Below, piece by piece: positions 3,960 through 63,531 of a stretch of DNA of 64,000 nt. The position numbers and the translations under genes are program-made. Every line of letters begins with the position of its first letter. Position 1 is the stretch's first letter. The notes below the pieces were generated by a model. That model had not been told where the DNA came from, searched no databases, and saw only the letters and a program-made list of their open reading frames with translations. The stretch comes from Oligoflexia bacterium (GTDB lineage: Bacteria; Bdellovibrionota; Bdellovibrionia; JABDDW01), in the NCBI GenBank assembly GCA_034439615.1, contig JAWXAT010000003.1, positions 51,973-115,972 of the forward strand. Direction: 5' to 3'.

Positions 3960-4036
3960 GCATATTTTATATCTCGTCTTTAGTCGGTGTCAGATGATTG
4001 GCTTTAGCATTGCCTTTCATAGCCGAAAAGAAAGGT

Positions 4037-12060: not shown

Positions 12061-12150
12061 TGGAGGAGAGAGAGGGATTTGAACCCTCGAAACGCTTTCG
12101 CGTTTACACGATTTCCAATCGGGCGCCTTCAACCACTCGGCCACCTCTCC
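12061..12150 (-). tRNA. tRNA-Ser (anticodon GGA), class II with long variable arm, CCA encoded
   Basis: Reverse complement ggagagg tg gccgagtggttgaaggc ... ttGGAaa ... long variable stem-loop (aaacgc gaaa gcgttt) ... gagggttcaaatccctc tctctcc t cca. The 7-bp acceptor stem pairs cleanly. Close to E. coli tRNA-Ser. Confidence 0.9.
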
Positions 12151-20552: not shown

Positions 20553-22325
20553 TTGCGATTCAACGAAGAATTCATCGAAAACGTACGCGAAGCCAATAAT
20601 ATCGTCGATCTCATTGGTCAATTCGTACAGTTACAAAAAGCTGGTTCAAGCTTTCGAGGTCTTTGTCCGTTTCCAAGTCATGCAGAAAAAACGCCGAGTT
20701 TTTACGTCAGTGATGTGAAACAACTCTACCATTGTTTTGGCTGTAAAAAATCTGGCTCAGCTTATAACTTTCTCATGGATTTTCAAGGCATGTCATTTCC
20801 TGATGCGGTGGAGTATCTTGCCAATCGAGCGAATATTGCACTCCCTGTACAAGAAAAAATCACACCAGCTCAGGCTGCAGTGACAGATGAGCGCCATCAA
20901 CAACTCAAAGTAAATAAATATGTGGCCGTATATTTTTATAATAAATTAAAAGCATTGAGCTCAGATCAAGGAGCTCAAAAATATCTTCATGACAGAGGCT
21001 TGACTCCAGAGATCGTTGAAGAATTCAAACTTGGTTATGCATCGACGGGCTGGAGTGATCTAGCAGGGGCATTGCTACGAGCGCGAGCTCCATTACAATC
21101 GGCTGAAAAATTAGGACTCATTAAGAAAAAACAAAGTGGTGATTACTTCGATTTATTTCGCGACCGATTGATGTTTCCGATTTTATCACCTAACGGAAAC
21201 GTTTTAGGTTTTGGTGGAAGAAGTCTTGGCGATCAAATGCCAAAATATATTAATTCTTCTGATAGCCCTGTGTTTAACAAGGGTAAAACTCTTTACGGAT
21301 TACATGTAACTGCAAAACATATTCGCGCTCAAAATGAAGTTTACATCGTTGAGGGCTACATGGATCTCTTAGCGCTTTATCAATTTGGCGTAAAGAATGT
21401 GGTGGCAACACTTGGGACAGCCTTTACTCTCGAGCATGCAAAGAGCCTTAAAAAGCTATGCTCACGTGTTGTCGTACTATTTGACGGTGACGATGCTGGG
21501 CAATTAGCAGCCGATAAAAGTCTTCCGATGCTACTTGATGCCGGAGTTTTTTCTCGATGTCTCTCTTTGCCCGGCCAAAAAGACCCTGATGATTATTTAA
21601 GAGAGTTTGGATTAGAAGAATTCCAGCGTTTAGCGGCACAAGCGCCAGATCATTTCATCAGTTTTATGAATCGTCACATGGCACATTTCAAGGGCCAACC
21701 CAGCGAAAAGGTAGAGCTTCTTGATGTCTTGGGACCTCTTTTGGAGCGTGTAACAGATCAACGGTTGAGAATTCTTTACTTACAAGAAGTGGCAGAGCGA
21801 CTGGGTATGGAGCAACGTCTCGTGGCGCAGCAACTTCGCGCGCAACACGCGCAACCTGCTGAAAATACACAGATAAATGTAAATACTGAGAAGACAGAAA
21901 AAATTCCTACCGAAGAGGAGATCTTGGTTCAATTTATGCTACAGAAACCAGTGCACCTCGAGTTCATTCAAGCTTCGGGTGCCATTGAGAAATTCGTAAA
22001 TAATGAGGCCCGCATGGTTGCCCAAAAGGTAGTTGAAAAATATTGTCAAAACCCAAATGATTTTGATAAATTGGGCGCTTCGCTAAAGGGTGAAGGTGTT
22101 AATTCAGAATTGCTAACAAATCATATTGGATTTAATAGCGGGTTAGACAAAGCAGGAGATGAGCAGTTGATCCAAGATTGCCTTGTACGGGTAAAAGATC
22201 GGTATTTAAAACGCATGTCTAAGAATCTTTTAAACTCGATTAAAAGCGAACCTGATCTCAATAATGAACAGTTAGAAATTTTCATGAAAATTGCAATGGA
22301 ACAAAAAGGCCCCCAACAGCCTTAA
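20553..22325 (+). CDS. dnaG: DNA primase
   Basis: TTG start. Zinc-ribbon CPFPSHAEKTPSF...HCFGC, TOPRIM region (EGYMD, DGDDAG). 590 aa. Confidence 0.93.
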   Translation: MRFNEEFIENVREANNIVDLIGQFVQLQKAGSSFRGLCPFPSHAEKTPSFYVSDVKQLYHCFGCKKSGSAYNFLMDFQGMSFPDAVEYLANRANIALPVQEKITPAQAAVTDERHQQLKVNKYVAVYFYNKLKALSSDQGAQKYLHDRGLTPEIVEEFKLGYASTGWSDLAGALLRARAPLQSAEKLGLIKKKQSGDYFDLFRDRLMFPILSPNGNVLGFGGRSLGDQMPKYINSSDSPVFNKGKTLYGLHVTAKHIRAQNEVYIVEGYMDLLALYQFGVKNVVATLGTAFTLEHAKSLKKLCSRVVVLFDGDDAGQLAADKSLPMLLDAGVFSRCLSLPGQKDPDDYLREFGLEEFQRLAAQAPDHFISFMNRHMAHFKGQPSEKVELLDVLGPLLERVTDQRLRILYLQEVAERLGMEQRLVAQQLRAQHAQPAENTQINVNTEKTEKIPTEEEILVQFMLQKPVHLEFIQASGAIEKFVNNEARMVAQKVVEKYCQNPNDFDKLGASLKGEGVNSELLTNHIGFNSGLDKAGDEQLIQDCLVRVKDRYLKRMSKNLLNSIKSEPDLNNEQLEIFMKIAMEQKGPQQP

Positions 22326-22346: not shown

Positions 22347-24215
22347 ATGGCTAAGAAAACTAAAACAAATAACGACACGGATAAGCCCGGAAAAAAAGAA
22401 GGCAAATCAGCCAAGGCTGCACCTGTCGAAAAACTCTCCGTAAAACAACTGCAAGATAAGATCGTCTCTGAAATAAAGAGATTTATCAGCATGGGTAAAA
22501 GCCGTGGGTACTTAACCTATGAAGAAGTAAATGATCTTTTGCCAGCTGAAATTGCAAGTCCTGAGCTTCTCGATATGCTTATGGAAGCTCTTGATCAAAA
22601 TGACATCAAGCTTGTTGATTCAACCAAAAAAGTAAAAGGTAAAGACGGAGAAGAATTCCTCAAAGAACCTACCGAAGCTGCGGCAGAGGAAGAAGAAGAA
22701 GAGGAAGAAGAAGACGAAGAAGGTGGCAAGGGTAATGACCCTGTACGTCTCTATCTTCGCAAAATGGGAAGTGTAAGTCTTCTCACGCGAGAAGGCGAAG
22801 TAGAGATCGCTAAGAAAATTGAAGAAGGTGAATTAGAGATTCTAAAAGTTATTTTGAGTTCACCTCTTGGTACTGGCGAAATCATCAATATCGGTGAACG
22901 TCTTGATAAAGGTCGCATTAAAGTAAAAAGTATTTTTCGCGGTCTTGAAGACGAAGACACAACATACGACGAAAAAGAATATATCCAAAAAATTTATGAT
23001 CTCATTGGTCACGTTAAAGCTTACAAGAAAAAATCTCAAAAATGTTTTGATCAACTCAATAAACATGGCCTGAGCCCAGCGACAAAAGAAAAAATTCATG
23101 CAGAGCTCAATGAGAATAAAGCAGAGGTTTTTAAGAACTTCCAAGACGTAAGCTTTAATAGAAAAACTATTGATCGCATTGTAATTAAATTTAAAAACTT
23201 AGTAACACGTCTGAATCAACTCAATAGTCTCATCACTATGGGTGTTCGTCGTGCAGATACAGCAAACATCGAAGAACTCAACGAGCTGAGCAAGCGATTA
23301 AAAGATAATCCTAAAGATCGCAGTAAGTTTATGCGCGATACTAGCATGACTTGCGAAGCGCTTGACGTTTTATGTGAGCAATTAAACACAGCTAAAAAAC
23401 GTATTGATCGAGTTGAAGTTGAAGCTCAGATGCACACTATGTGGGTTAAAGACACTTACTGGGGCATCGAAGGCGGAGAAAGAAAAGCTGACAAGGCTAA
23501 ATCAGAACTTGTTGAAGCAAACCTTCGCTTGGTTGTTAGTATTGCGAAAAAATATACAAACCGTGGTCTTCAATTCTTGGATTTAATTCAAGAGGGAAAC
23601 ATTGGTTTGATGAAAGCCGTTGATAAGTTTGAATACCGTCGTGGTTATAAGTTTTCAACTTATGCCACATGGTGGATTCGTCAGGCCATCACACGCGCCA
23701 TTGCCGATCAAGCTCGAACAATTCGTATTCCTGTACATATGATCGAGACCATTAATAAATTGATTCGCACTTCACGTTATCTTGTTCAAGAAATTGGTCG
23801 TGAGCCAACTCCTGAGGAGATAGCTGTGAAAATGGAAATGCCTATTGATAAAGTTCGTAAGGTTCTCAAAATTGCAAAAGAACCTATCAGTCTCGAAACA
23901 CCAGTAGGTGAAGAAGAAGACAGTCATTTAGGTGACTTTATCGAAGATAAAAAAGTTATTAATCCATCTGATGCCATCATTAATTTAAATTTAGCAGAGC
24001 AAACACGCCGAGTGCTTGCGACACTTACACCTCGTGAAGAAAAAGTACTTCGCATGCGTTTTGGTATTGGTGAGGAAAGTGATCATACTCTCGAAGAAGT
24101 TGGACAAGATTTTAATGTAACTCGAGAGAGAATTCGTCAGATTGAGGCAAAGGCGTTGAGAAAACTCCGTCATCCTAGTCGTGCGAAGAAGTTAAAAGCG
24201 TTTATTGATAATTAA
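22347..24215 (+). CDS. rpoD: RNA polymerase sigma-70 factor
   Basis: Region 1.2 ([24 protein letters not shown]), an acidic spacer, region 2 ([50 protein letters not shown]) and region 4 are all present. Confidence 0.95.
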
Positions 24216-24260: not shown

Positions 24261-24337
24261 GGGCCTATAGCTCAGCTGGTTAGAGCTCCCGGCTCATAAC
24301 CGGGCAGTCCCAGGTTCGAATCCTGGTGGGCCCACCA
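24261..24337 (+). tRNA. tRNA with CAU anticodon (elongator tRNA-Met; tRNA-Ile2 (LAU) not excluded), CCA encoded
   Basis: gggccta ta gctcagctggttagagc tcccgg ctCATaa ccggg cagtc ccaggttcgaatcctgg tgggccc a cca. The 1-72 G-C pair and the anticodon stem argue against an initiator. Confidence 0.88.
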
Positions 24338-25577: not shown

Positions 25578-25937
25578 AATTCTCAAAAGTAGAGTGGATG
25601 ATCGCTGCTTCAGGCTTTTATAGATGAAGGAGAGGAAAGTCCGGACTCCGTTGGATAGTGCAAAGGGTAACGCCCTTCCGCCGTGAGGCGAGGAACAGTG
25701 GAACAGAGAGAATGTCCAGGGCATTGAGCCGGAACACGGGAACGGGAGTTTTCGGGGAGCCGCTGGAGTGAAAACAGCCAAACTCTGCACGGAGCAAGAT
25801 CAAATAGGGAAGCAATAGTAGGGTGTATCCGCCCGTAGCTTCCGGGTAAGATCGCTTGAGCCTTGAGAGTAATCTCAGGCCTAGAGGAATGATCATCCTC
25901 GACAGGATCCGGCTTACAGCTTTACTTGTGAGAATTA
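25578..25937 (+). ncRNA. rnpB: RNase P RNA (bacterial type A)
   Basis: The conserved GGAAAGTCCGGACTCC (P4 5' strand) and ACAGAGAGAATG.. / ..GGATCCGGCTTA (P4 3') motifs are present. P1 pairs aattctcaaaagtagag (5') with ctttacttgtgagaatt (3'). A terminator follows. Two ORF-track ORFs on the minus strand overlap it and are spurious. Confidence 0.85.
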
Positions 25938-45365: not shown

Positions 45366-46325
45366 TTACTTTTGCGGGAGTTGTGCTTTTAGCGATTCAA
45401 TTATTTTTTGTTCTTCAAGATCCTTGGCAGTAAAGTCTTGGGTAAGTTTGTCATTTTCGGTAGTTGCATCTTTAATTTTATTTTCAATATCGGTGAGCTC
45501 TTGTTCAAATTCACTTTGTTTCAATTCCCCAATGCTTAACGCTTCGTCACGTGCTTCTGTATTCGTAGCGATTTGACTTTTTAGGTTATCTAAAACCTGT
45601 TTTTGTTCACCTAGATCATAGGTCAGGGTTTTATGTTTGAGTTCAAGTTCTTTACCAGTCAATGGCTGTTTACGCATGATCATGTAGCCCTTAACTTTTG
45701 TAGCTAAGTCGTCGCATTCTTTTCCAAGCGCATCTATTTCTTCTACTGTCTTTGTAAAACTTTCTTTAGCTTTCCTTTCAGCAGCAAGTGCTTCGTGATT
45801 TGGATTTGTTTTGTATTGCTCGACATAAAAATTAAGCCGAAAGGGATCGTCACTATCATTTTGTTGAAAAATTTCATATTTTCGCAAGAGATCTGTCAAA
45901 GCTCCTTGTTTAATTTCGTCTTCAGCTTCTTTGCCTTTTCCTTCGAGTTTTTTTCCGAGGTTGGCTTTTTTTTGTGCATCGGGTGTTGCGCTTTTGTTGA
46001 GATAATCAACACCTTCACTTAGTGAAATGAAAAGTTTTACCTGCTGATTGCCGGGCATAATCATTAGGGCCCAGTGTTGTGTCGGAACTCCGGAACATGC
46101 ACTTAAAGCTCCACGCATAACAGCATAACTGATAATTCCCAAAAGAAAGTTCCGCGCCGCATCATCAGTTACGGTGTACTGACTTGCATCAAATAGAACT
46201 TTAAAACGCCCCTGATTAATTTTTTGCTCGAGTTTAAAGCGAACAGCGGCGGCTTCGGATTCTCCGAGACCACCTATGATTGTGACTACTTGTATTTCAC
46301 CTTGAGTTGAAAAGCTAATTTCCAT
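45366..46325 (-). CDS. STAS-domain (anti-sigma-antagonist-like) protein with a long C-terminal coiled coil
   Basis: N-terminus EIQVVTIIGGLGESEAAAVRFKLEQKINQGRFKVLFDASQYTVTDDAARNFLLGII has the STAS/SpoIIAA pattern. Asp sits at the usual phospho-Ser position. The C-terminal 200 aa are Glu/Lys-rich heptads. Confidence 0.5.
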   Translation of the reverse strand: MEISFSTQGEIQVVTIIGGLGESEAAAVRFKLEQKINQGRFKVLFDASQYTVTDDAARNFLLGIISYAVMRGALSACSGVPTQHWALMIMPGNQQVKLFISLSEGVDYLNKSATPDAQKKANLGKKLEGKGKEAEDEIKQGALTDLLRKYEIFQQNDSDDPFRLNFYVEQYKTNPNHEALAAERKAKESFTKTVEEIDALGKECDDLATKVKGYMIMRKQPLTGKELELKHKTLTYDLGEQKQVLDNLKSQIATNTEARDEALSIGELKQSEFEQELTDIENKIKDATTENDKLTQDFTAKDLEEQKIIESLKAQLPQK

Positions 46326-46343: not shown

Positions 46344-47276
46344 TTGACAGTTATTAAGCAAGCCCGAGAAGATGTTGAGATGGCAAAAAAAGATGCAAGA
46401 ACACCCGATCAAAAGATAAAACAGCTAGAGATGGAGCTAGAAGACCGCGAACGCGAACTTTTAGCGTTCAGAAAAGAACTTGGCGACGTGAATGTTCAGC
46501 TGGAGAAGTTTATCAACCAGATGTCCAATGAATTGCAACTGGCTTCACTCATTCAGCGAAGTCTAGTGCCCACAGAGATACCGACGATTCCTGGTTTTGA
46601 GTTTTCTACAAAATTTGTAGCGTCACCCATATCTGGGGGTGATTATTTCGATATTTTTGAACTCGAAGATAAAATGCGTTTTGGAATCATCATGGCCAAT
46701 TCATCTGGTCATGGAATGGCCTCACTTTTTTTATCGGTATTATTAAAGCTCACAACTCAAATTGAAGCGCGTAAAGGTCTGGACCCCAGCGAAGTTTCAA
46801 ATAATATGACTAAAGAAATGCAAGGTGCTGTTAATGCAAAAGATACGACAAATCTTTTTTATGGTGTCATTGATCGTCGTCGTTACACACTGACTTATTC
46901 AAAAGCTGGAAATATAAATTCTTATATTTACAATCGAGAACAAGATAAATTGGTGAGGCTCGAGGCCACACAAGGCCCTATCGCTAAAAGTTCAAAGCCA
47001 AATCAAAAGAGTGAAACCATTTCTCTGGATCCGAGAGATAAACTTATTGTTACAAGTGAAGGTCTAACAAAGGCTCTAAATCGCTCTGATGAAGCATTTA
47101 GTGAAGATCGTCTTTTTGAGCATATTCTAAAAAATCCTGGTGCGAAGTGCCACGACATGCGAAATGAAATATTGTTTCAGTTAGAAAAGTTTACAAATGG
47201 CCGCGATTACATTCAGGATTTGAGCATTCTCGTGATGGAAGTAAAAGACAAAGTTATTAAACTTCGTAAAGGTTGA
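46344..47276 (+). CDS. PP2C-family serine phosphatase (SpoIIE/RsbU-like) with an N-terminal coiled coil
   Basis: SLVPTEIPTIPGFEFSTKFVASPISGGDYFDIF...GHGMASLF...GLTKALN are PPM motifs. Divergent from the STAS gene, 18 bp apart. Confidence 0.8.
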   Translation: MTVIKQAREDVEMAKKDARTPDQKIKQLEMELEDRERELLAFRKELGDVNVQLEKFINQMSNELQLASLIQRSLVPTEIPTIPGFEFSTKFVASPISGGDYFDIFELEDKMRFGIIMANSSGHGMASLFLSVLLKLTTQIEARKGLDPSEVSNNMTKEMQGAVNAKDTTNLFYGVIDRRRYTLTYSKAGNINSYIYNREQDKLVRLEATQGPIAKSSKPNQKSETISLDPRDKLIVTSEGLTKALNRSDEAFSEDRLFEHILKNPGAKCHDMRNEILFQLEKFTNGRDYIQDLSILVMEVKDKVIKLRKG

Positions 47277-48157: not shown

Positions 48158-49306
48158 ATGGCATCAGAGTCGAAAGTTGAAGTGTATGACAAAGCAATTG
48201 ATAAAGGATTAGAGGGGATCGTCGCTTGTACGACAGCGGTTTCTTCAATTGTCGATGCCACTCTCACTTACGCAGGTTACACAATTGACGATTTGTCTGA
48301 ACACTCAACCTTTGAAGAAACAACATTTCTACTTTGGAATAAGCGATTTCCAAAAGTTACAGAGTTAGAAAAATTCAAAAAAGATTTAGCTCAAAATATG
48401 ATACTCGAAAAAGAGTATGTAAATTTCTTAAAAGGACTTCCCAATAAAAACGTACATCCCATGGAGTGGCTCAGAACTGCCGTATCAGGCCTAGCACTCT
48501 GGGATAAAGAAGCTACCGATATCTCCGCTGAATCTAATCAACATAAAGCACTTCGTTTAACAGCTAAAATGGGCCCAATCGTTGCCGCACTTGAGAGATT
48601 TCGCACCGGTCAACAATTGCTCGAGCCAAAACTTGATAAATCACTTGCTTGGAATTTTTTGTATCTGCTTAAAGGTAAAGAGCCTGACCCCTATCATGTG
48701 AAAGTATTTGATACCGCTCTCATTTTACATGCTGATCATGAGTTAAACTGTTCAGCATTTAGTGTTCGTGTGACCACAAGTTCTCTGAGTGATTTACATT
48801 CTGCTATCACGAGCGGAATCGGTACACTTAAAGGGCCTCTGCATGGCGGTGCAAATGAGCAAGTCATGAAGATGCTCCTTAAAATCGGCAACATGAAAGA
48901 ATGTGAAACTTTTGTTAAAAATGCGCTTGAGAACAAAGAAAAAGTAATGGGTTTTGGTCATCGCGTTTATAAAAACGGAGATCCACGGGCAAGAATTTTA
49001 AAAAGCATGTCACAGGAACTTGGTAAGCGCCGTGGTGAACCACAATGGTATGATATGAGCGTTCATATTGACGATATCATGCAAGACAAAAAAGGCCTTT
49101 TGCCCAATGTCGATTTTTATTCAGCCAGTGTTTATTACTGTCTTGATGTTCCCATTGATCTGTACACACCTATCTTTGCTGTAAGCCGCATCTCTGGTTG
49201 GATTGCACATGCGTTTGAGCAATATGCAAACAATCGTATTTATCGTCCACGCGGCCATTACTCTGGCAATCGCGATCTCAAATGGGTCGCCCCTGATAAG
49301 CGATAA
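48158..49306 (+). CDS. gltA: Citrate synthase
   Basis: Citrate synthase signature around ...GFGHRVYKNGDPRA. Catalytic His/Asp regions present. 382 aa. Confidence 0.92.
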   Translation: MASESKVEVYDKAIDKGLEGIVACTTAVSSIVDATLTYAGYTIDDLSEHSTFEETTFLLWNKRFPKVTELEKFKKDLAQNMILEKEYVNFLKGLPNKNVHPMEWLRTAVSGLALWDKEATDISAESNQHKALRLTAKMGPIVAALERFRTGQQLLEPKLDKSLAWNFLYLLKGKEPDPYHVKVFDTALILHADHELNCSAFSVRVTTSSLSDLHSAITSGIGTLKGPLHGGANEQVMKMLLKIGNMKECETFVKNALENKEKVMGFGHRVYKNGDPRARILKSMSQELGKRRGEPQWYDMSVHIDDIMQDKKGLLPNVDFYSASVYYCLDVPIDLYTPIFAVSRISGWIAHAFEQYANNRIYRPRGHYSGNRDLKWVAPDKR

Positions 49307-49438
49307 TTAAATTTCGTCTAACTTCTAAACAATAAATTCAAATTTCAAAATTTGAAGTTCAAACCTTTGTCTTAAGTTCTTAGTCCAGATTCCGATCATT
49401 TAATTGGGCAAATTGAATATATAACTGAAGGGCAGTGT

Positions 49439-50131
49439 ATGAATGCGCAATACAACTTTATTTTGGTGAGCCGAAAGACGGGCGATGCTTTCAAAATTCG
49501 CGATGAAATAGAGCGTAATCGACTTTACTCTGTTGAAATGATCGAAACCGCACCGGCTGCTTTGGGTCGTCTCGCAAAAGGGGACATCAGCTGTATGGTT
49601 TTTAATTTTGATAGTTTTAATCAACAAAAAATCAGCGTCATCACTAATCTTCGCGATATGGGTTATACATTTCCCGTCATCATTTTTGCCGCATTCGTTC
49701 AAAAAGAAGCCTATGATATTGTGAAAAAAATGGATCGCGTTATTATTATCGAATGCCCTTTTGAAGCCAAAGATGTTTGGGGAATATGTCAAAAAATAGT
49801 TCAAGGTGCAAAAGTTAATCAGCGTATTTTTCGTCGATTCTATACAAATCAAAAAGCGGTACTTGAAAAAACAATCAGCGGTGAAATCATCGCGGGCGCA
49901 ATTTATAATCTCAGCCATGGTGGAGCCTATATGGAGTTGCACTCAGGACGCGTGAGACGCGGTGAGATTCTCAAGGTTACAATTCAATTAAATAAAATTT
50001 CAAAAGCTTATAATGTCGACGCGCAAGTTGTCTGGACTACTCCACAGGGTTTTTGGCTGGGAAAGCCTGCTATTGGCTTAAAATTCATGAAGGCAGGCGA
50101 TGTCTACAGAAATTTACTCGACAAGCTGTAA
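49439..50131 (+). CDS. PilZ-domain protein with a degenerate N-terminal receiver-like domain (paralog 1 of 3)
   Basis: PilZ motifs QRIFRRF (RxxxR) and YNLSHGGAY (NxSxGG). The N-terminal ~120 aa have CheY-like alternation but lack the acidic pocket (LVSRKTGD, CPF in place of KPF). Confidence 0.75.
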   Translation: MNAQYNFILVSRKTGDAFKIRDEIERNRLYSVEMIETAPAALGRLAKGDISCMVFNFDSFNQQKISVITNLRDMGYTFPVIIFAAFVQKEAYDIVKKMDRVIIIECPFEAKDVWGICQKIVQGAKVNQRIFRRFYTNQKAVLEKTISGEIIAGAIYNLSHGGAYMELHSGRVRRGEILKVTIQLNKISKAYNVDAQVVWTTPQGFWLGKPAIGLKFMKAGDVYRNLLDKL

Positions 50132-50170
50132 CAGAGTTTAAAGTTCGAATCGTTTTGATTGGGGATATAA

Positions 50171-50866
50171 ATGTCAGATAAATCAAAATATACATTTCTT
50201 CTGTTCAGACAAGAATCAGAAGGCTGTGACCAAATTGTTGCAGAGATTGGTGCAAATCCACTATGTCAAATAATTCAAGTCGATACGATTCGTGAAATTT
50301 TTGATCATGCGGCGGATGGTAGTGCGAATTCATTAATTTTTAATTTAAAAATTTTTGACTCCAATACACTTAAGGTTATTCAAAAAATAAAATCAATCAC
50401 ACCAACACTTTCTACAACAATCGTTACAGCGCAGAAAATTCAAAATATCGACATGCAAAAATTAAAGAAATACAATGAGATTGTCATTATAGATAAGCCT
50501 GTAAAGCATGGTGATTTTGCATTGCTGACGGAGAGACTTGCAGAAGGCAAGCCAATATACTTTCGCGAACATAAACGATTTAATACGATTCAAATAGCCC
50601 ATCTTGAGAAACTGACCTCTAATGAACAATATGAAGGTAGTGTTTATACTATTAGTAAGGGCGGCGCCTATATTGAACTTACCAAGGGTAATGTCAAACC
50701 AGGAGAGCTCTTTCGCGTCTCTATTAAATTAGATCAATTATCAAAAGCGCATAATTTTAATGCTGAAGTGATTTGGACTGCACCAAAAGTGCGGCAAGGG
50801 CTGGCAGTTGGCCTGAAATTTATTAATGAAGAGCAAGTCTATAGAACTTTGCTTGAGAAGGTATAA
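50171..50866 (+). CDS. PilZ-domain protein with a degenerate N-terminal receiver-like domain (paralog 2 of 3)
   Basis: REHKRF (RxxxR) and YTISKGGAY (xxSxGG). C-terminal GLKFINEEQVYRTLLEKV is shared with the other paralogs. Confidence 0.75.
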   Translation: MSDKSKYTFLLFRQESEGCDQIVAEIGANPLCQIIQVDTIREIFDHAADGSANSLIFNLKIFDSNTLKVIQKIKSITPTLSTTIVTAQKIQNIDMQKLKKYNEIVIIDKPVKHGDFALLTERLAEGKPIYFREHKRFNTIQIAHLEKLTSNEQYEGSVYTISKGGAYIELTKGNVKPGELFRVSIKLDQLSKAHNFNAEVIWTAPKVRQGLAVGLKFINEEQVYRTLLEKV

Positions 50867-50869
50867 AAT

Positions 50870-51571
50870 ATGAGTAAGAGCGGACGTCAACAGTATTTAC
50901 TAATTAGTCATGTCGAAGAAATCGGTTCCGAAATAGAAAGTGCGCTGACAACTGGTCGTGCATTCACTTTGCATCGTGTGGCGAGTCTCAGTGAGGCGCT
51001 TCAAAAACTATCAGATGGTGAAATTAAATGTGTTATTTTTAGTATTCCTGTTTTTCATCAGAAAAGTGTCAAATTTATATCTAAACTTCGTGATATTTAT
51101 CGAGAGATGCCAATTATTATCGTATCAGGAAAAATTCAGAGAGAGGCGTTTGATAGCGCAACTGAAATTAAGCGTGTTGTTATTTTAGAGCAATCATTCG
51201 TAAAAACTGAACTTCTGGCAATATGCGAAAAAGTAGCAAAAGGCCACGAAATCTATCAGCGTAAAACCAAACGATTCTCAACTGACCAGATGGTTGATTT
51301 AGAGCGGATGCTCACTGGCGAAGTAATGAAGGGTTTTTTATTTAATCTTAGCCAAGGTGGTGCATTCATTAACATCGAGAGAGGTGTTATAGTGCCCGGG
51401 GATATTCTAAAAATGAATGTTAAACTCGATAAGTTGGATAAATCACATCTTGTTTTTGCAAAAGTAATATGGGTGTTACAACAAGGTTTTGGATTAAATA
51501 AACCAGGTGCAGGTTTGAAATTCATGAAGGCTGAAGAGGTTTATAGTAGTCTTTTAGATACCGTTAAATAG
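50870..51571 (+). CDS. PilZ-domain protein with a degenerate N-terminal receiver-like domain (paralog 3 of 3)
   Basis: RKTKRF (RxxxR) and FNLSQGGAF (NxSxGG). C-terminal GLKFMKAEEVY. Only 3 nt separate it from paralog 2. Confidence 0.75.
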   Translation: MSKSGRQQYLLISHVEEIGSEIESALTTGRAFTLHRVASLSEALQKLSDGEIKCVIFSIPVFHQKSVKFISKLRDIYREMPIIIVSGKIQREAFDSATEIKRVVILEQSFVKTELLAICEKVAKGHEIYQRKTKRFSTDQMVDLERMLTGEVMKGFLFNLSQGGAFINIERGVIVPGDILKMNVKLDKLDKSHLVFAKVIWVLQQGFGLNKPGAGLKFMKAEEVYSSLLDTVK

Positions 51572-52508
51572 ACGGTTCGTGTTGCTTGAGGCTTAGTTCC
51601 TCAATTTGAATAGTGACGTGTTCAATATTAAATCGCTTTTTAAGCATTTCTCTAATTTCACATAAAAGTTCATGTCTTGATTCACCAACAGCAACAACGT
51701 GTACGCTGAGACTCACCATTCCGGATGTAATACTCCAAACATGCAGGTCATGTACCTCTGTGATGCGCGGAATTTTACTTATAGCATCTTGAATTTCATC
51801 GCTATCGAGATGCAGTGGTGTGCCTTCAAGAATTACGTGTGCGGTATCTAAAATAAGTCTAAAAGATGATGCGATAATAATAAGTGCAATGATAACACTC
51901 ACAATGGGATCAGCTTTAGTCCAGCCATAAAAATATATTAATAGACCTGCGATCATTGCTCCTAGTGAACCTAGGGCGTCAGCTAAAACATGAAACAAGG
52001 CGCCACGCATATTGGGATGTGCGTGATTTCCGTGAGTTAAAAGCCATGCACCAACAAGATTAAAAATAAGGCCGCCTGTTGAAATCCAAAACATTTCCAC
52101 TGATTTGATTTCTACAGGATTATTAAAACGATCCCAAGCTCCCCACATAATCACACATGAGAGGAGCACTAAAAAAATACCATTGATGAAAGCTGCTAGT
52201 ATCTCTAGGCGTAAAAAACCATAAGTACGATGAGCCGTGGCTGGTTTAGAACTCATCATGAAAGCAAAGAGACTTAAACTTAAAGCCGCTGTATCAGTGA
52301 GCATGTGAACAGCATCTGAAATAAGGGCTAATGAATTTGTGTAAAACCCCCCAAATGCCTCGGCTATCATGAATAAGAAGGTGAGGGCTATGACCCACTT
52401 TAGTTGCCGTATGTTTTTTGAGTTATCTAAGCCATGAGAGTGACTCCCATGCATATGGGGGTGTTGATGATCGTGATGATGTTCATGGTCATGATGCGTA
52501 GTGCCCAT
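51564..52508 (-). CDS. Cation diffusion facilitator family transporter (CzcD/ZitB-like) with a His-rich N-terminus
   Basis: MGTTHHDHEHHHDHQHPHMHGSHSHG is a His-rich metal-binding tail. Six TM helices. HxxxD motifs (HMLTD, HVLAD). Confidence 0.85.
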   Translation of the reverse strand: MGTTHHDHEHHHDHQHPHMHGSHSHGLDNSKNIRQLKWVIALTFLFMIAEAFGGFYTNSLALISDAVHMLTDTAALSLSLFAFMMSSKPATAHRTYGFLRLEILAAFINGIFLVLLSCVIMWGAWDRFNNPVEIKSVEMFWISTGGLIFNLVGAWLLTHGNHAHPNMRGALFHVLADALGSLGAMIAGLLIYFYGWTKADPIVSVIIALIIIASSFRLILDTAHVILEGTPLHLDSDEIQDAISKIPRITEVHDLHVWSITSGMVSLSVHVVAVGESRHELLCEIREMLKKRFNIEHVTIQIEELSLKQHEPSI

Positions 52509-52564: not shown

Positions 52565-53623
52565 ATGGCGCTCATGATCAAAAAAACGAGTAAAACTAAA
52601 ATCAGGCTCACACAATCCGTTTCTTGCGCGGGTTGAGCCGCTAAACTGAGCCCAGCGTTGCTGCGGCAAGCAGTTAAAGGTCTAAAACAGCCGGCTGATC
52701 CCAGACTTCTTGTTGGGTTCGATAAAGCCGACGATGCAGGTGTGTATCTAATTTCTCCTGAACTTGCCTTGATTCAAACCGTTGATTTTTTTACTCCTAT
52801 TGTTGATGATCCGATTTGGTTTGGGCGAATTGCTGCGGCCAATTCTTTAAGCGATGTTTACGCCATGGGTGGAAAGCCTTTAACCGCACTGAATGTATAT
52901 TGTGTGCCTGAAGATCTTGATCCAAAAGTCATTGGTCAAATTCTTCAAGGTGGGATCGAAAAAATGACTGAAGCAAAATGCGCACTAGTCGGTGGGCATT
53001 CAGTGAAAGATCTTGAGTTAAAATACGGATTATCGGTTACGGGAACCATTCACCCTGGACGTATTTTTTCAAATGACAAAGCCCTTGTAGGGCAAGCATT
53101 GGTACTTACAAAAAAACTAGGCACAGGAATTATTACAACCGCAGCAAAGTTTGAAGATTGTCCCAAAAAACTTCTGAAAGAAGCCATTGAACAAATGGCA
53201 AGGCTCAATGAGCGAGCCTGTAATGCCATGATAAAGACAGATGCCACCTCATGCACAGATATTACGGGTTTTGGATTTTTGGGACATCTTGCTGAGATGA
53301 CGCGCGCAAGTCAGGTGAAAGCTAAAATTTATTCTAAGAAAATTCCATATTTCAAAGGGCTTGAAAAGTTAATCGCAGATGAGTACGTCACTCGGGGTGA
53401 TAAAACAAATCGTGAGTACGCAAATAATGTTGTATTTAAAAATGTCGAAATGTTTATGCAAAGTATACTTTTTGACCCGCAGACTAGCGGCGGTCTTTTA
53501 ATTTCAATGTCTAAAAGTAATGTAGAAAAATTTCAACTTGAGATGAAAAAGGCAGGTCAACAGTCTTGGGTCGTTGGTGAAATCACGGCTAAAGATCGTA
53601 AGGGATCGATCGAAGTAATATGA
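52565..53623 (+). CDS. selD: Selenide, water dikinase (selenophosphate synthetase) with an in-frame TGA (52634-52636) at the catalytic Cys17 position; probable selenocysteine
   Basis: The track ORF (52658..) lacks the N-terminal motif. Extending the same frame upstream gives MALMIKKTSKTKIRLTQSVSCAG-[TGA]-AAKLSPALL..., colinear with E. coli SIRLTQYSHGAGC(17)GCKISPKVL, with TGA at Cys17. Downstream motifs DDAGVY and FGRIAAANSLSDVYAMGG are present. Start at ATG 52565 or 52574. Confidence 0.8.
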
Positions 53624-54288
53624 TTGAAACTTTTTATTTAGATCGCCCAAAATCTGCTAATGCCCTTGATCTCGCTACTGCTAAACAAATTTCATTAAAA
53701 ATTAAGAATTGTACAGGGCTTGTCATTGCCTCAAAAAATTCAAAAGTTTTTTGCTCTGGTGGCGATCTTAAAGCTTATTCAAAAATGAAAACAAAAAATG
53801 AAGGTATAAAAGTAAATCGCGAGATTCGAAAAACACTTGATGGGTTTCAAAAAGCCCCCGTTATAATAGTCGCAGCCGTTGAGGGTATATGTATTGGAGG
53901 AGGCTGTGAGTTGGCTTTAGCCGCTGATCGTATAGTGGCAAGTTCCAGTGCGCGTTTTGCCTTTAAACAAGTTTTACTTTCATTATCCCCTGGATGGGGC
54001 GGAGCACAGAGATTGTTAAATCGTGTCAGCGCTTCCATTGCCTTTGATTGGCTTACGTCAGGTCGCTGGGTGAGTGCGCAAGAAGCATTTCGTTGTGGTT
54101 TGATCGATGAGATCACGTCACCTGGTACTGTTGAAGAAAAAGCACATGAATTTATATTAGAACGTGCCTTCGTGACGCCAGAGTTGATTTTAAAAATAAA
54201 AGAAATTGTAGCGAATCCATCTAAAGAAGAGAAGATTTTTGAAAGTCTTTGGTTTTCAAAAAACCATCAAACCACATTAAAGCGGTAA
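53620..54288 (+). CDS. Enoyl-CoA hydratase/isomerase (crotonase) family protein
   Basis: VFCSGGDLKAY...ICIGGGCELALAADRIVA are the crotonase oxyanion-hole motifs. Overlaps the selD stop. Confidence 0.8.
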   Translation: MIETFYLDRPKSANALDLATAKQISLKIKNCTGLVIASKNSKVFCSGGDLKAYSKMKTKNEGIKVNREIRKTLDGFQKAPVIIVAAVEGICIGGGCELALAADRIVASSSARFAFKQVLLSLSPGWGGAQRLLNRVSASIAFDWLTSGRWVSAQEAFRCGLIDEITSPGTVEEKAHEFILERAFVTPELILKIKEIVANPSKEEKIFESLWFSKNHQTTLKR

Positions 54289-58178: not shown

Positions 58179-61100
58179 ATGTTAAAAATGAAAAACAAAC
58201 TCTCAAGCCTTATGACTTTTTTTTCGTGGATTATAATTTTTCAACTAGCCCTTGGCAGCACACTCGTCGATGTAGCTAAAGCACAAGAAGCCACGCAAGT
58301 GCTGACACAAAGCATAGTTACTAATCAAGATGCTCGAATGGCTATTGCTGATGCAGTTGTTGACCCTGCGATTTCAGCTATTGCAGCTGATACAACTTTT
58401 CCTCGAGAGTTAGATCTTAGCTCAAATGATCCTATCGTTGATCAAGATCCATTTTTTCAAAATGCTCAAAGTTGGGGGCAAATCACGGGCCAAGTATCTG
58501 GTGAATTAGCATTTTCAAATGATGGCCAAGTCTCACAAATCAAACTTCCGTTTCAAAATAAAGTTTGGAAACTAAAAGCACCGATTCACCCGATTTTTGC
58601 AACCAGTGATTATGTTTTCTTCGCAGCTAATGCGGGGAGCGATATTTTCTCGGCCTCTTCAAATGACGGTGCTGATTTTGGCGAGGGAATATTCTATGTT
58701 CCGTATAACGAACTCTTAGCTTCAAGTGCACAAGAAGAAAAAATTCCTGTTTACTTTTTTCCTATGCCTGGCACGGGTTGGCAAGCCACAGCAAAAGCGG
58801 ATGTTTTAGTAACTGAAATTCCTCAGCACGATATTGTTGTATTCACAGATACCCAAGGCGCTCCCTTGCCTGTGAAAGTTGAGGATCTTAAATCTATAGC
58901 TAAAGTTGAATCTGTAAACTTTATGATGGCTCAAAGCATGGCTATGCAAGCGGCTATTGATAAACTTAAGGCTAATAAGAGCCAAATTGAATCTGTGCGA
59001 CAAAACTTTATTAATAATCTACAAACACTTAGTAAAGCCGCTCTAAAAGAAGATGAAAAATCATTTTCACGAGCACACGAATCTATCGCGAATAGTTTTG
59101 GACAGGTTTTAACTTCAATGAAATCTGTTTTAGGAACAACGAAGCTCACTTTGCCTCGCGGGAGTACCGCGGGATTCGGGATGCTCTTCACGGGATTTGA
59201 TTTAGACAAATCAAATCAAAGCACTATCTTTGCAAACTATCAGCAAACCAAATTAGAAAAATGGCGAACTGCTTTTCTTCAGGTTTTAGGTATTAACACT
59301 GCTCATGCAGATGCCGAACTCACAAGAGTTCTTATTGGCGTTAGTATTGTACTCGCAAAATGCGCATTTATTTTTTCTGTTGGTACAGCTCTGCGATATA
59401 CGGTTTTAAGACAAAAAATTAAAGAGCGAATGGGTGTTAGCGGTATTGGGAAAAATGGGTTTCAAGTAAACCTCACTGTTTTTGCACAATCACTAACGTT
59501 TGTTGCGCAATTTCCCTATGTGACATCTACCAATACTATTGAGTACATTATGGATCGCGCCGGAACTGCTGAAAACGGCCGCATCAGAAAACTCTTTAAC
59601 GCAACATTTGGTTACTCGCGAAAAATCAATAATAAAACTCCAGTCAATCATAAGACGCTGATTTACGGTGTTGGTATTCTTGGCTTTGTTGACACAGCCC
59701 TTGTTGCCTTTCAGCAGTACATGGTCATTCCGTGGATTGTTTCTGGTCTTGTTGTGATTTTTCCTGGTCTTGCAAGTCGCGCTGAAGCTGCCTGGGGAAT
59801 GGGCGGCAATATGGCTTTATATAATCTCATAGCAGTCATCGGTAATCTTACGGCTTACATTTCTTCAGGTGCTTATGCCTATGCCAATCAAGTTCAAGAA
59901 ATTTCAACAAATGATGCATTAAGAATTGTCGCTGATGAAATGCGTAAAGAAGGTGTGAATCCCGATGATCCAATAAACAAAAGACTCTTTGATACGCGTG
60001 TGAAAAAAATGGTTCGCGCATCACTCAATAGTAAGGGTTTGCCAGATGAAAGAGCTTTTCTCTTTGATGCCAATTCTTTTTATCAAAGTATTCAAGGCTT
60101 TTTTGGCTATAAGCCAACAGATAAATCAAATCCTGAGGAATATTATGCAGTTTTAAGACAAGGGCTAGTCTTAAGAGCCCTAAATAATGCAATTGTTGTT
60201 GCACAAGATACAAAAAATGAACGTGCACTTGTTGTTTTAAAAGGAGCCAAAGAAGATTTTAGTCTTGTTGAGAAATTTAAATCTGATCCATCAGCATTTT
60301 TGACTCCCACAAAAATTAAAGAAGTGGCTGAGCGTTATCGTAATGTACGACAAGAGCTTACTTCCTTTACTTTTACAGGTGGCCCATCTGATCGAATAAC
60401 AAAGCTCGGTAATTGGCGTAATAAAGGGTCAAATGCAGGAGTGCGGTCAGCGGCACAGATTTATCGAAAAGAATTTTTTAGTTTAATGGAAATAAAAGAA
60501 GTTGCTGTGTCTGTCGGTACTCAAACTGCTCAAGATATAAGCCCCGAAGCATTAGACCCGTCACTCAGAGAAGGTCGGTTTGCACGTTGGCAATTAAAAA
60601 GAGCTATTACAAAAGCTAATGAAAAATTTGTCGCTCAGTTTAAAGTAGATCCCATTGAACTTTTTGGTGAGTCTGGTGATGCAGCTCAAGCAAATTTACG
60701 CACGCAATGGGAAAAACTCTATCGCAGTGAATTGGTAAGTTTAGTTGGTTTGCGTCCTGACTCAACTGAAACACAGTTAATGGCAGATGTTGAGGCTGAA
60801 ACTGAGAGTTTATTTAAAGTGCGACTTGAGTCAAATGCCTCACTTAAAACATATTTGGCTACACTATCTGCTTATGAACGCGCACGGGTAACAGAAATTT
60901 ATAGAACAGATGTTTTTGTTCAAAAATATGTCGATGCCACTATTAAAACCGAAAAAGTTCCACCGCACTCACCTGCACAACCGGGTATATTTCAAGGTTT
61001 GAGACAAACACAACTAGTAAGGCAAAATAAGGTTCTGACATCGGGGTTGCGGTTTATGGAGGGATTGTTTTCAGACACGCGCTATCAGCGGGGTTTAAAA

Positions 61101-61493
61101 AACCTACTCTTTCGTACAATTCCACTAGTAGAAGATATGGTTGCCGGAAATCTTCGTGAAATCAGAAGAACGCCCGTAGAAGGTACGTTTGGATATCTTT
61201 ATAATAGGGTTATTTGGGCAGCAGTTCTTCCCTATAAACAGTGGGGAGTTCAGAGATTGTTTCGTGGTTCGACTATTTCTGGTCCATGGGCCACTACAAA
61301 TCGTATTCTCACAAAAATAGGGTTTAAGCCTGGTGAGAATGCAAAAGGAATGTTGTCTTACGGAGTTATCGGAAGCTTTGCCACGTTTACTGGGGGTATA
61401 TTCTTTGGACTTTTCAGTGAAGATATCTTGCGGGGTGTGACAAAGGCGATTGATTCTTGCTCTGCGGTACTATCGAAGATAATCCCTTTTTAA
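58179..61493 (+). CDS. Large (1104 aa) hypothetical secreted/membrane protein
   Basis: Signal peptide MLKMKNKLSSLMTFFSWIIIFQLALG. Internal and C-terminal hydrophobic segments. Divergent from the 1216-aa gene. No recognisable domain. Confidence 0.6.
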   Translation: MLKMKNKLSSLMTFFSWIIIFQLALGSTLVDVAKAQEATQVLTQSIVTNQDARMAIADAVVDPAISAIAADTTFPRELDLSSNDPIVDQDPFFQNAQSWGQITGQVSGELAFSNDGQVSQIKLPFQNKVWKLKAPIHPIFATSDYVFFAANAGSDIFSASSNDGADFGEGIFYVPYNELLASSAQEEKIPVYFFPMPGTGWQATAKADVLVTEIPQHDIVVFTDTQGAPLPVKVEDLKSIAKVESVNFMMAQSMAMQAAIDKLKANKSQIESVRQNFINNLQTLSKAALKEDEKSFSRAHESIANSFGQVLTSMKSVLGTTKLTLPRGSTAGFGMLFTGFDLDKSNQSTIFANYQQTKLEKWRTAFLQVLGINTAHADAELTRVLIGVSIVLAKCAFIFSVGTALRYTVLRQKIKERMGVSGIGKNGFQVNLTVFAQSLTFVAQFPYVTSTNTIEYIMDRAGTAENGRIRKLFNATFGYSRKINNKTPVNHKTLIYGVGILGFVDTALVAFQQYMVIPWIVSGLVVIFPGLASRAEAAWGMGGNMALYNLIAVIGNLTAYISSGAYAYANQVQEISTNDALRIVADEMRKEGVNPDDPINKRLFDTRVKKMVRASLNSKGLPDERAFLFDANSFYQSIQGFFGYKPTDKSNPEEYYAVLRQGLVLRALNNAIVVAQDTKNERALVVLKGAKEDFSLVEKFKSDPSAFLTPTKIKEVAERYRNVRQELTSFTFTGGPSDRITKLGNWRNKGSNAGVRSAAQIYRKEFFSLMEIKEVAVSVGTQTAQDISPEALDPSLREGRFARWQLKRAITKANEKFVAQFKVDPIELFGESGDAAQANLRTQWEKLYRSELVSLVGLRPDSTETQLMADVEAETESLFKVRLESNASLKTYLATLSAYERARVTEIYRTDVFVQKYVDATIKTEKVPPHSPAQPGIFQGLRQTQLVRQNKVLTSGLRFMEGLFSDTRYQRGLKNLLFRTIPLVEDMVAGNLREIRRTPVEGTFGYLYNRVIWAAVLPYKQWGVQRLFRGSTISGPWATTNRILTKIGFKPGENAKGMLSYGVIGSFATFTGGIFFGLFSEDILRGVTKAIDSCSAVLSKIIPF

Positions 61494-61573: not shown

Positions 61574-61807
61574 ATGGCTGATAAAGCAAATAAGTACCCA
61601 CAAAATGTAGCAGGTAAATTCTATGTCGACACGCAGTGCATCTCTTGTGATGCTTGCTGCACTTCAGCGCCCAATAATTTTAAAATGAATGATGAAGAAG
61701 GCCACGCCTATTTATCTGTTCAACCAACCTCACCTGAAGAAGAAACTCAGTGTAAAGAAGCAATGGAAGGTTGCCCGGTTGAGGCTATCGGTAACGACGG
61801 GCCCTAA
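61574..61807 (+). CDS. Small ferredoxin (single [4Fe-4S]/[3Fe-4S] cluster type)
   Basis: CISCDACC...CPVEAI gives the CxxCxxC...CP ligand pattern. 77 aa. Confidence 0.8.
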   Translation: MADKANKYPQNVAGKFYVDTQCISCDACCTSAPNNFKMNDEEGHAYLSVQPTSPEEETQCKEAMEGCPVEAIGNDGP

Positions 61808-63531
61808 TGGATCGTGATAAACTTGCCACTCTTATAAATGAAATTGCCACTTATCTTGATCTTCTTGGTGAAAATCCTTTTAAAATTCGAGCCCATCAAA
61901 ATGCTGTTCGCATCATTGAATCATTTGATGGTGATTTAGAAAAAGCCATCAAGAGTGGAGCCATTGGTGAAGTAAAAGGCATTGGTCCAGCACTTAAAGA
62001 AAAATTCGAAGAGTTTTTAAAATCAGGTGAAATTACTGAGCATAAAAAACTTCAAAAAAAAATCCCTCAAGGTCTCATGGAGATGATTCGTATCCCTGGT
62101 CTCGGGCCAAAAAAGGTGCGCGCAATTTATAACAAACTAAATATCACATCAGTGGGTGAGCTTGAATATGCCTGTAAAGAAAATAGATTAGTAAAACTTG
62201 AGGGCTTTGGTGAAAAAACCCAAGTGAAGATTTTAAAAAACATTGAGTTTGTTAAAAAATATCAAGAATCGTTTCTATACTCCGATGCAGCCCTTGAGGC
62301 TCAAATTTTAGTTGCGGCACTTAAAAGTGTTAAGGGCGTTACTAAAATTGAAGTGGGTGGGTCGTTAAGACGTCGAAAGGAAATCGTACGTGACATCGAT
62401 ATTCTTGTGGCTACGAGTGATCCAAAGTCTGTAACTAAAAAGTTTTCAACACATCCCAGTGTTGAGAGCATCACTGGCAGTGGTGAAACAAAAACAAGTG
62501 TTGTTTTAAAAAATGGAATGGCTTGCGATTTACGAGTTGTTACTGAGCAAGAATTTCCGTTTGCGCTATTGTATTTTACAGGCAGTAAAGAACACAACAC
62601 CGTCATGCGCCAAATTGCCAAAGACAAAGGTTTAAAACTTAATGAGTATGGTTTGTACAAGGGAGAAAAACCAACACCTTGTAAAACAGAAGCAGAAATT
62701 TTTGAAAAACTAGGGCTTGTTTATATTTCACCAGAAATGCGCGAGAATAACGGCGAAATTGAAGCTGCAAAAAAGAAAAGTCTTCCCCAATTAATTGAGC
62801 GCGACCAAATTAGAGGCATATTTCATTGTCATACAACTGATAGTGACGGAACAAATACATTAGAAGAAATGGTCGGGGCTGCCCAAAAACTAGGTTTTGA
62901 ATATATTGGTATCAGTGATCACTCAGCTACTTCAGCTGGATACGCCCATGGAATGAAAAAAGATCGCCTTCTTGAACAATTTAAAGCCATTGAAGCCCTT
63001 CAGAAAAAATTTAAAATTAAAATTTTTAAAGGCATTGAATCAGATATTTTAAGTGATGGTAGCTTAGATTATGAAGATGCTGTGTTAAAGAAATTTGATT
63101 TCATCATCGGAAGTATTCATCAAGGGTTTACATTATCTCAAGATCAAATGACCAAAAGAGTTCTCAAAGCTGTAAAAAATCCCTATTTAGATTTTCTAGG
63201 TCATCCCACGGGGCGTTTACTATTAGCTCGAGAAGCATTTGAAATAAACATGCACACGATTATTGACGAGGCAGCCAAACAGGGTGTCATCATTGAGTTG
63301 AATGCAAACCCACAGCGACTCGACATGGATTGGCGACTTGGTAAATATCTAAAAGAAAAAGGTGGGCGTGTAAGTATTAATCCCGATGCTCATAGTATTG
63401 CAGGTCTTGAAGACGTGGAGTACGGGGTGGGTATCGCGCGTAAGGCTTGGCTGAGTGCTGAAAATATCGTTAACACATTGCCTGCTGATAAAGTACTCGC
63501 TGCACTTCCTCGCGCTCGTCATCTTAAGTAG
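61807..63531 (+). CDS. polX: DNA polymerase/3'-5' exonuclease PolX (Pol X core + PHP domain)
   Basis: N-terminal HhH / Pol-beta-like region (GIGPALKEKF, GLGPKKV) and C-terminal PHP motifs (FHCHTTDSDG, ISDH). 574 aa. Confidence 0.9.
   Translation: MDRDKLATLINEIATYLDLLGENPFKIRAHQNAVRIIESFDGDLEKAIKSGAIGEVKGIGPALKEKFEEFLKSGEITEHKKLQKKIPQGLMEMIRIPGLGPKKVRAIYNKLNITSVGELEYACKENRLVKLEGFGEKTQVKILKNIEFVKKYQESFLYSDAALEAQILVAALKSVKGVTKIEVGGSLRRRKEIVRDIDILVATSDPKSVTKKFSTHPSVESITGSGETKTSVVLKNGMACDLRVVTEQEFPFALLYFTGSKEHNTVMRQIAKDKGLKLNEYGLYKGEKPTPCKTEAEIFEKLGLVYISPEMRENNGEIEAAKKKSLPQLIERDQIRGIFHCHTTDSDGTNTLEEMVGAAQKLGFEYIGISDHSATSAGYAHGMKKDRLLEQFKAIEALQKKFKIKIFKGIESDILSDGSLDYEDAVLKKFDFIIGSIHQGFTLSQDQMTKRVLKAVKNPYLDFLGHPTGRLLLAREAFEINMHTIIDEAAKQGVIIELNANPQRLDMDWRLGKYLKEKGGRVSINPDAHSIAGLEDVEYGVGIARKAWLSAENIVNTLPADKVLAALPRARHLK

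Follow-up and report, generated by a model that had tools for sequence, protein, structure and literature searches.

We find that a 64,000-nt stretch of an Oligoflexia bacterium genome (contig JAWXAT010000003.1, forward-strand positions 51,973 to 115,972; hereafter the window, with positions counted from its first letter) carries three tandem genes, paralogs A, B and C, each encoding a degenerate CheY-like receiver (REC) domain followed by a PilZ domain of canonical type. PilZ proteins are the commonest receptors of cyclic di-GMP (c-di-GMP). We consider it reasonably probable, at roughly 60%, that the three proteins are soluble, single-polypeptide adaptors switched by c-di-GMP, in which the dead receiver would serve as a partner-binding module. 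Bdellovibrio-type predators encode many PilZ proteins with few assigned outputs, and 15 are found in Bdellovibrio bacteriovorus HD100 (PMC3271064).

Three tandem genes encode pseudo-receiver–PilZ proteins

The three genes lie on one strand, encode proteins of 230, 231 and 233 aa, and are separated by 39 nt (A to B) and 3 nt (B to C), exactly as a model-written first-pass annotation of this DNA had described; its placement of the triplet directly downstream of gltA is likewise correct, the citrate synthase gene (48158-49306) ending 132 nt before A. A purine-rich Shine-Dalgarno-like stretch precedes each gene, and the 3' end of C overlaps a convergent cation-diffusion-facilitator (CDF) transporter gene (51564-52508, minus strand) by 8 nt. 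The GC fraction around the triplet, 0.37-0.39, is that of the window as a whole. The locus is also present on a 45-kb Logan contig, and the public annotation of paralog C reads 'MAG: PilZ domain-containing protein [Oligoflexia bacterium]' (MAG, metagenome-assembled genome). The genes and their ligand motifs are as follows.

49439-50131, plus strand: paralog A, 230 aa, pseudo-receiver (about residues 1-122) and PilZ (about 126-230); PilZ score 34.1 bits
49823-49837, plus strand: paralog A RxxxR (R129-R133), in the linker after receiver helix α5
49907-49924, plus strand: paralog A NLSHGG ([D/N]hSxxG), residues 157-162
50171-50866, plus strand: paralog B, 231 aa, pseudo-receiver and PilZ; PilZ score 41.5 bits
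50564-50578, plus strand: paralog B RxxxR (R132-R136)
50648-50665, plus strand: paralog B TISKGG, residues 160-165
50870-51571, plus strand: paralog C, 233 aa, pseudo-receiver (E7-H123) and PilZ (barrel E136-E219, helix H221-232); PilZ score 36.5 bits
51260-51274, plus strand: paralog C RxxxR (R131-R135)
51344-51361, plus strand: paralog C NLSQGG, residues 159-164

An antisense open reading frame (ORF) of 180 aa (49400-49942, minus strand) overlaps paralog A; it is absent from the gene calls of the public contig, and we regard it as an almost certain shadow of the AT-rich coding strand.

The receiver half lacks the phosphorylation site

A profile built from 103 family members matches the solved receivers HemR, RpfC, Spo0F and CheY over positions 2-119, with a best E of 1.4e-9, and confident AlphaFold2 models of paralog C (predicted local distance difference test score, pLDDT, 93.9; predicted TM-score, pTM, 0.82) and paralog B (pLDDT 93.8, pTM 0.80) consist of five β-α units, the CheY-like (βα)5 fold, followed by a coil that leads into a β-barrel and a C-terminal helix. 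Structural matches of the receiver halves found with Foldseek include the FrzS and HP1043 receivers. No solved structure covering both halves was found, the best query-normalised TM-score being 0.46 and each match spanning one domain only. The Pfam receiver model PF00072 (Response_reg) does not score above threshold in A, B or C, its sole match being C at 20.3 against 30.2 bits, and it matches 35 of the 103 relatives at E<0.01. The hidden Markov model (HMM) check that the first-pass annotation had proposed for its reading is therefore borne out by PF07238 (PilZ) in all three proteins and not by PF00072, the receiver being seen instead by the family profile and the models.

Alignment of the paralogs to CheY and Spo0F through the family HMM gives the residues at CheY positions D12, D13, D57, T87 and K109 as S, R, N, A, C in paralog A; R, Q, N, (T or A), K in paralog B, where the fourth depends on the placement of a one-residue insertion; and S, H, S, S, Q in paralog C. 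None of the three has the acidic pair or the phospho-accepting Asp, as expected from the earlier description of a CheY-like fold without an acidic pocket. That description also had the Lys of the KPF motif missing from each protein, which is right for A (Cys) and C (Gln) and wrong for B, where Lys-Pro is kept ('IIDKPV') without the acidic pocket. The three proteins are predicted neither to bind Mg2+ nor to be phosphorylated by the canonical route.

This degeneracy extends across the family. Among 220 relatives, only three have Asp at the D12 position; at D57, 91 have Asn, 64 Asp and 18 Glu; and at K109, 107 have Lys and 68 Arg, with Lys/Arg-Pro in 175. The full quintet is absent among the patterns listed across these 220 proteins. 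Because D12 is lost, D57 is often changed and the full quintet is not seen, the whole family classes as a pseudo-receiver family as Bourret et al. define the term (bioRxiv 10.1101/2025.06.23.661182). Conservation also extends to an 'EKP…G…K' segment in receiver β5/α5 that is specific to the family.

These counts bear on a different arrangement, in which the receiver is the input, docking, a non-Asp modification or weak phosphorylation gates the PilZ domain, and the PilZ C-terminal helix is the output. The relatives that keep Asp at D57 (64/220) or Lys/Arg-Pro at K109 (175/220) would fit such a scheme, as would the SpoIIE/PP2C-type phosphatase gene that is a conserved near neighbour of the family, the interaction surface proposed for the PilZ C-terminal helix by Galperin & Chou (bioRxiv 10.1101/814665), and Myxococcus xanthus PixA, which joins PilZ to a functional receiver (PMC8316039). 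We nevertheless judge this arrangement unlikely, given that the acidic pair and the phospho-Asp are missing from all three paralogs, that D12 is gone in essentially the whole family, that neither the window nor the conserved neighbourhood contains a histidine kinase gene, and that gltA, in some loci together with a hydrolase gene, lies between the SpoIIE-type gene and the family gene.

The PilZ half retains the ligand motifs

All three proteins score well above the PF07238 gathering score of 22.5 bits, and the same model is matched by 103 of 103 aligned relatives. The RxxxR and (N/T)xSxGG motifs and the C-terminal GLKF(M/I)...VY..LL tail common to A, B and C can be read just as first annotated. 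The consensus [D/N]hSxxG is present in A (NLSHGG) and C (NLSQGG) and takes a variant form in B (TISKGG), where Ser, Gly and the hydrophobic residue are kept and Thr stands in place of D/N. In the AlphaFold2 models RxxxR falls within the coil that joins receiver helix α5 to the first strand of the barrel, with barrel strands at 136-219 and a helix at 221-232 in C, and strands at 137-218 and a helix at 220-230 in B; both models thus have the canonical PilZ fold, a six-stranded β-barrel followed by a C-terminal α-helix. Foldseek matches the PilZ halves to the PilZ domains of Alg44, BcsA, YcgR and MotI. Scores against TIGR02266, a Myxococcus paralogous PilZ-type family, are 24.9, 29.4 and 28.9 bits, below the cut-off of 68.7, and the YcgR_N/PilZN domain (PF07317 or PF12945) has no match in A, B or C, whose N-terminal domain is an α/β receiver fold.

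Ligand motifs RxxxR and [D/N]hSxxG, including the GG, are the most conserved positions of the 103-member alignment: the second Arg and the final Gly are present in 103/103, the Ser in 102/103 and Asn/Asp in 101/103. The Thr of paralog B is the only Thr among the aligned members (alignment column 192: N95 D6 T1 S1). We infer that A, B and C are PilZ proteins of the canonical type, predicted to bind c-di-GMP.

Family distribution and duplication history

Exhaustive profile searching across 1.84 billion cluster representatives gave 583 matching proteins at E<=1e-3, of which 272 reach E<=1e-10 and 73 reach E<=1e-30. Almost all of the matches are 213-243 aa long and align end to end, and the pseudo-receiver–PilZ architecture therefore defines a stable family. 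All named relatives come from Bdellovibrionota MAGs (Oligoflexia, Bdellovibrionia, Bdellovibrionales, Bdellovibrionaceae), the rest being metagenomic, and the family appears restricted to Bdellovibrionota. The profile searches returned MAG and metagenome proteins only and no cultured or characterised member, which is not proof of absence, including from Bdellovibrio bacteriovorus; a word-indexed search with paralog C alone matched only itself.

Over their full length A, B and C are pairwise 29-35% identical, with receiver halves at 22-27% against PilZ halves at 38-45%. Copy number was surveyed in 15 genome loci, a biased sample found via one narrow peptide pattern from an 11-sequence alignment, and in five further contigs (individual loci carry the prefix L). 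Most surveyed genomes have a single copy, which is always closest to A. The Oligoflexia MAG SJ240 (L003) also carries a triplet, arranged as in the window, whose copies are 57% (A), 31-32% (B) and 54% (C) identical to their window counterparts, and MAG nzgw168 (L004) has two copies; the GltA proteins of the window organism and SJ240 are 84% identical. In a neighbour-joining tree without support values, A groups with the single-copy genes, while B, C, copies 2 and 3 of L003 and copy 2 of L004 form one clade in which B, the most divergent copy, has long branches.

Because the single copies are closest to A and group with it, A is the ancestral single-copy gene, orthologous to the gene found across Bdellovibrionota. 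A first tandem duplication then produced the ancestor of B and C and a second one B and C themselves, both in an Oligoflexia lineage and before the window organism and SJ240 separated. Between the copies, DNA-level repeats or gene conversion were sought and only short AT-rich chance matches were found; the absence of a DNA-level repeat indicates that the duplication is old. The 'array' of the first-pass annotation is therefore a genuine triplication, and what had been missed is its composition: one gene is widely conserved in Bdellovibrionota as a single copy, and the other two are duplicates specific to this lineage. All three ORFs are intact and have Shine-Dalgarno-like sites, and the retention of intact copies and motifs across the SJ240 split argues against pseudogenes and for selection. 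Sub-functionalisation is plausible, since the duplicates are old, their receiver halves are the more diverged and B alone has Thr where the Asn/Asp that contacts the ligand is expected.

The same data allow us to weigh whether the proteins might be c-di-GMP-independent adaptors, like Pseudomonas aeruginosa PilZ and M. xanthus PlpA, or whether B and C might be decaying, non-functional duplicates. Some PilZ proteins do not bind c-di-GMP (Galperin & Chou, bioRxiv 10.1101/814665; PlpA, PMC8316039), B combines a non-canonical Thr with long branches, and its L003 orthologue is only 31-32% identical. However, non-binding PilZ domains have normally lost the motifs, which are here the most conserved positions; all three ORFs are intact, with confident folds in the models of C and B; and intact orthologues of B and C occupy the corresponding positions in a genome with an 84%-identical GltA, which argues for long-term retention under selection. 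We find ligand independence or decay very improbable.

Three further ORFs of about 220 aa lie right after gltA or right before a crotonase gene in other loci (L015:1476-2141, L021:7172-7837 and L024:2118-2774). That of L015 is a weak family member (E 5e-33) and those of L021 and L024 have no Pfam match; they may be strongly diverged extra family copies.

A proposed c-di-GMP-switched adaptor mechanism

The analysis shows which domains the proteins contain, that the receiver active site is degenerate and the ligand motifs are intact, where the family occurs, and that the duplications are old and in which order they took place. For a mechanism we turn to the two-domain PilZ adaptors YcgR, MotI/DgrA, PlzA and MrkH. 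In YcgR, MotI and PlzA, ligand binding closes the two domains and creates a partner surface. By analogy we infer ligand binding, domain closure and an output role of the receiver in the present proteins: c-di-GMP would bind with the RxxxR linker on one side and the barrel face bearing [D/N]hSxxG on the other, fixing the linker and re-orienting the two domains, and the CheY-like domain, not switchable by Asp phosphorylation, would present the output or partner surface. In such a protein c-di-GMP would take the place of phosphorylation as the switch. As divergence is mainly in the receiver half, the three copies probably differ in the partner to which they link the common ligand or in the threshold of their response, and the Thr of paralog B may shift its affinity.

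Several observations weigh against this model. About 30% of the family keep Asp at D57 and most keep Lys/Arg-Pro, so that residual receiver-type input is conceivable in the Asp-keeping members, though not in A, B or C. The Thr-for-Asn replacement in B may weaken or abolish c-di-GMP binding, the faster divergence of the receiver halves could simply reflect a stronger ligand-binding constraint on PilZ, and the genomic context points to no nameable partner.

A conserved chromosomal neighbourhood

The genes and spacer that frame the triplet in the window are listed here.

46344-47276: SpoIIE/PP2C-type phosphatase gene
48158-49306, plus strand: citrate synthase type II (gltA; 2-methylcitrate synthase subfamily); PF00285 E 3.5e-129, TIGR01800 cit_synth_II 468 versus 421 bits
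49307-49438, plus strand: AT-rich intergenic region of 132 nt, read from the sequence
53620-54288, plus strand: short gene of the crotonase/enoyl-CoA hydratase family; ECH_1 E 7e-34

gltA adjoins a family gene in at least eight loci (L003, L004, L006, L008, L015, L018, L021 and L022), and in genomes with one copy a crotonase gene follows the family gene after 0-35 nt, as seen in at least nine loci (L007-L010, L012, L014, L016, L022 at 5001-6391 and L023 at 5001-6416). These crotonases are 222-241 aa long and sometimes abut the REC-PilZ gene, as in L022, which suggests that the REC-PilZ and crotonase genes are an ancestral two-gene operon; in the window the CDF transporter gene and selD (52658-53623) are inserted between them. 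The recurring order is Transglut_core2/TPR, SpoIIE-type phosphatase, (α/β hydrolase), gltA, REC-PilZ, crotonase, and these elements stay linked across the phylum even where inverted. An RpfF-like identity of the downstream crotonase was also considered and is not supported, the protein being generic by NCBIfam and PDB comparison.

The adaptor model is compatible with a more specific proposal, that the c-di-GMP-loaded protein binds or regulates the neighbouring crotonase or citrate synthase. Crotonase genes this close to the family gene in different Bdellovibrionota lineages, and a citrate synthase gene that adjoins it even after inversions, both point this way. So does the second-best PDB match of the family profile, the RpfC receiver domain 3m6m, which was reportedly solved bound to the crotonase RpfF and which would then be a precedent for a receiver-crotonase pair. 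On the other hand, synteny within one phylum may be inherited, and SpoIIE, Transglut_core2 and ABC-transporter genes are kept alongside; the window crotonase lies 2 kb off, behind an opposite-strand gene; and it has no RpfF-specific match. A metabolic target of this kind seems to us improbable. More speculative still, and a long shot, is that the family as a whole is a c-di-GMP-controlled regulator of acyl-CoA or central carbon metabolism, its dead receiver docking onto the crotonase encoded directly downstream in most genomes or onto the upstream citrate synthase, much as RpfC does onto RpfF. If this were true, the three copies would let metabolic control be graded or specific to a target, and the family would represent a class of PilZ output that has yet to be described.

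The motility or predation outputs suggested in the first-pass annotation have no support, as the window holds only housekeeping and metabolic genes and the conserved neighbours are gltA, the SpoIIE-type phosphatase gene and the crotonase gene; the other part of that interpretation, a triplicated pseudo-receiver–PilZ module, stands on HMM searches, structure prediction and the literature. Among the 45 window ORFs scanned against Pfam, none is a GGDEF, EAL, HD-GYP, flagellar, pilus or gliding gene. The window is a core chromosomal region, with dnaG-rpoD, RNase P RNA, rml genes, leucine-catabolism genes, peptidases, selD and PolX. Further features in it are the following.

12064-12150, minus strand: tRNA gene
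20553-22325: dnaG
22347-24215: rpoD
24261-24334, plus strand: tRNA gene
25586-25932, plus strand: RNase P RNA, bacterial class A, 214 bits
54296-57946, minus strand: ORF of 1216 aa with no Pfam match at E<=0.001
58179-61493, plus strand: ORF of 1104 aa with no Pfam match at E<=0.001
61807-63531, plus strand: PolX-type DNA polymerase (pol β thumb and palm, HhH, PHP)

The ORFs of 1216 and 1104 aa are divergent, and both are called as genes on the Logan contig. A protein of 319 aa (45366-46325, minus strand) with a coiled-coil-rich C-terminal half and no Pfam or NCBIfam family is encoded divergently to the SpoIIE-type gene, and its gene also adjoins that gene in L004 (44% identity). In two Bdellovibrionales MAGs the gltA slot is occupied on the opposite strand by a citrate synthase of about 455 aa (L009:1512-2876 and L010:3669-5042, both minus strand) that is only 26-27% identical to the type II protein, and hence a non-orthologous enzyme at the same chromosomal address. 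On the metagenomic contig L023, a gene for a 252-aa FliG_C-domain protein (3843-4601, minus strand) lies divergently just upstream of the REC-PilZ gene, the sole motility-related neighbour among all loci.

The spacer between gltA and paralog A is poorly conserved among relatives. It contains a GAAGGG Shine-Dalgarno-like site ahead of the ATG of A, and a 9-bp perfect AT-rich palindrome, TTCAAATTT-ca-AAATTTGAA (49337-49356), partly shared with L003, that is possibly an operator or a weak hairpin. An RNA element or riboswitch was sought in the spacer and rejected (no Rfam match at E<=1, fold z-score -0.22). A promoter and terminator scan gave counts at shuffled expectation, and the spacer contains no recognisable terminator.

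Relation to known receiver and PilZ proteins

REC–PilZ fusions were already listed in the original description of PilZ (Amikam & Galperin 2006, as cited by Galperin & Chou, bioRxiv 10.1101/814665). The catalogued fusions share with A, B and C the same two Pfam superfamilies and a canonical PilZ domain with RxxxR, [D/N]hSxxG and the C-terminal helix; they are listed there and not characterised, whereas the present family has a degenerate receiver throughout and is apparently confined to Bdellovibrionota. The first-pass remark that such proteins are poorly characterised is upheld by our literature checks, in which the terms 'REC-PilZ', 'CheY-PilZ' and the like returned no papers and PixA was the sole studied receiver/PilZ protein found. 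Like A, B and C, PixA is an orphan in the 230-aa class that combines a c-di-GMP-binding PilZ domain with a receiver, in a predatory former deltaproteobacterium (M. xanthus, PMC8316039). It differs in having the opposite order, with PilZ N-terminal and the receiver C-terminal, in keeping all phosphorylation residues (Asp180), and in the genetic evidence for its control by phosphorylation. Neither the PixA-type order with an intact Asp nor any detectable orthology to PixA was found in the A/B/C family.

YcgR, MotI (DgrA), PlzA and MrkH are likewise small and soluble, with two domains joined by a linker that carries RxxxR, and PilZ halves of the YcgR/MotI type match the family structurally (Foldseek E 1e-6 to 1e-4); the PilZN partner domain of the YcgR type is replaced here by a phosphorylation-dead receiver. 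Use of a catalytically dead receiver fold as an interaction or oligomerisation module, with c-di-GMP as the regulating ligand, has parallels in the c-di-GMP-regulated pseudo-receivers VpsT, FleQ and ShkA (bioRxiv 10.1101/2025.06.23.661182) and in the pseudo-receiver FrzS (PMC1974792). In VpsT, FleQ and ShkA, c-di-GMP binds at the receiver surface itself or elsewhere outside a PilZ domain, with DNA binding or kinase control as the output. Paralogs A, B and C, unlike these, have a dedicated PilZ ligand site and no other output domain. Cle proteins reportedly bind c-di-GMP through a short C-terminal arginine-rich extension and not through PilZ. Compared by description only, Caulobacter Cle is also CheY-like, and c-di-GMP switches its interaction with a partner, the flagellar motor (PMC5677366).

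Both domains, their fusion and the general logic were thus already known, and the genes were already annotated as PilZ-domain proteins. What is new is descriptive: the family-wide degenerate receiver, the restriction to Bdellovibrionota, the conserved neighbourhood and the duplication history. The triplet is real but fairly ordinary, and because its parts and logic are known and the organisms are uncultured, its practical value is modest. The family is compact and phylum-restricted, with a conserved chromosomal address and a lineage-specific tandem expansion. It offers a clean natural setting in which to ask whether c-di-GMP can stand in for phosphorylation as the switch of a CheY-like domain, and its three paralogs would be suited to work on how a single ligand comes to drive several outputs.

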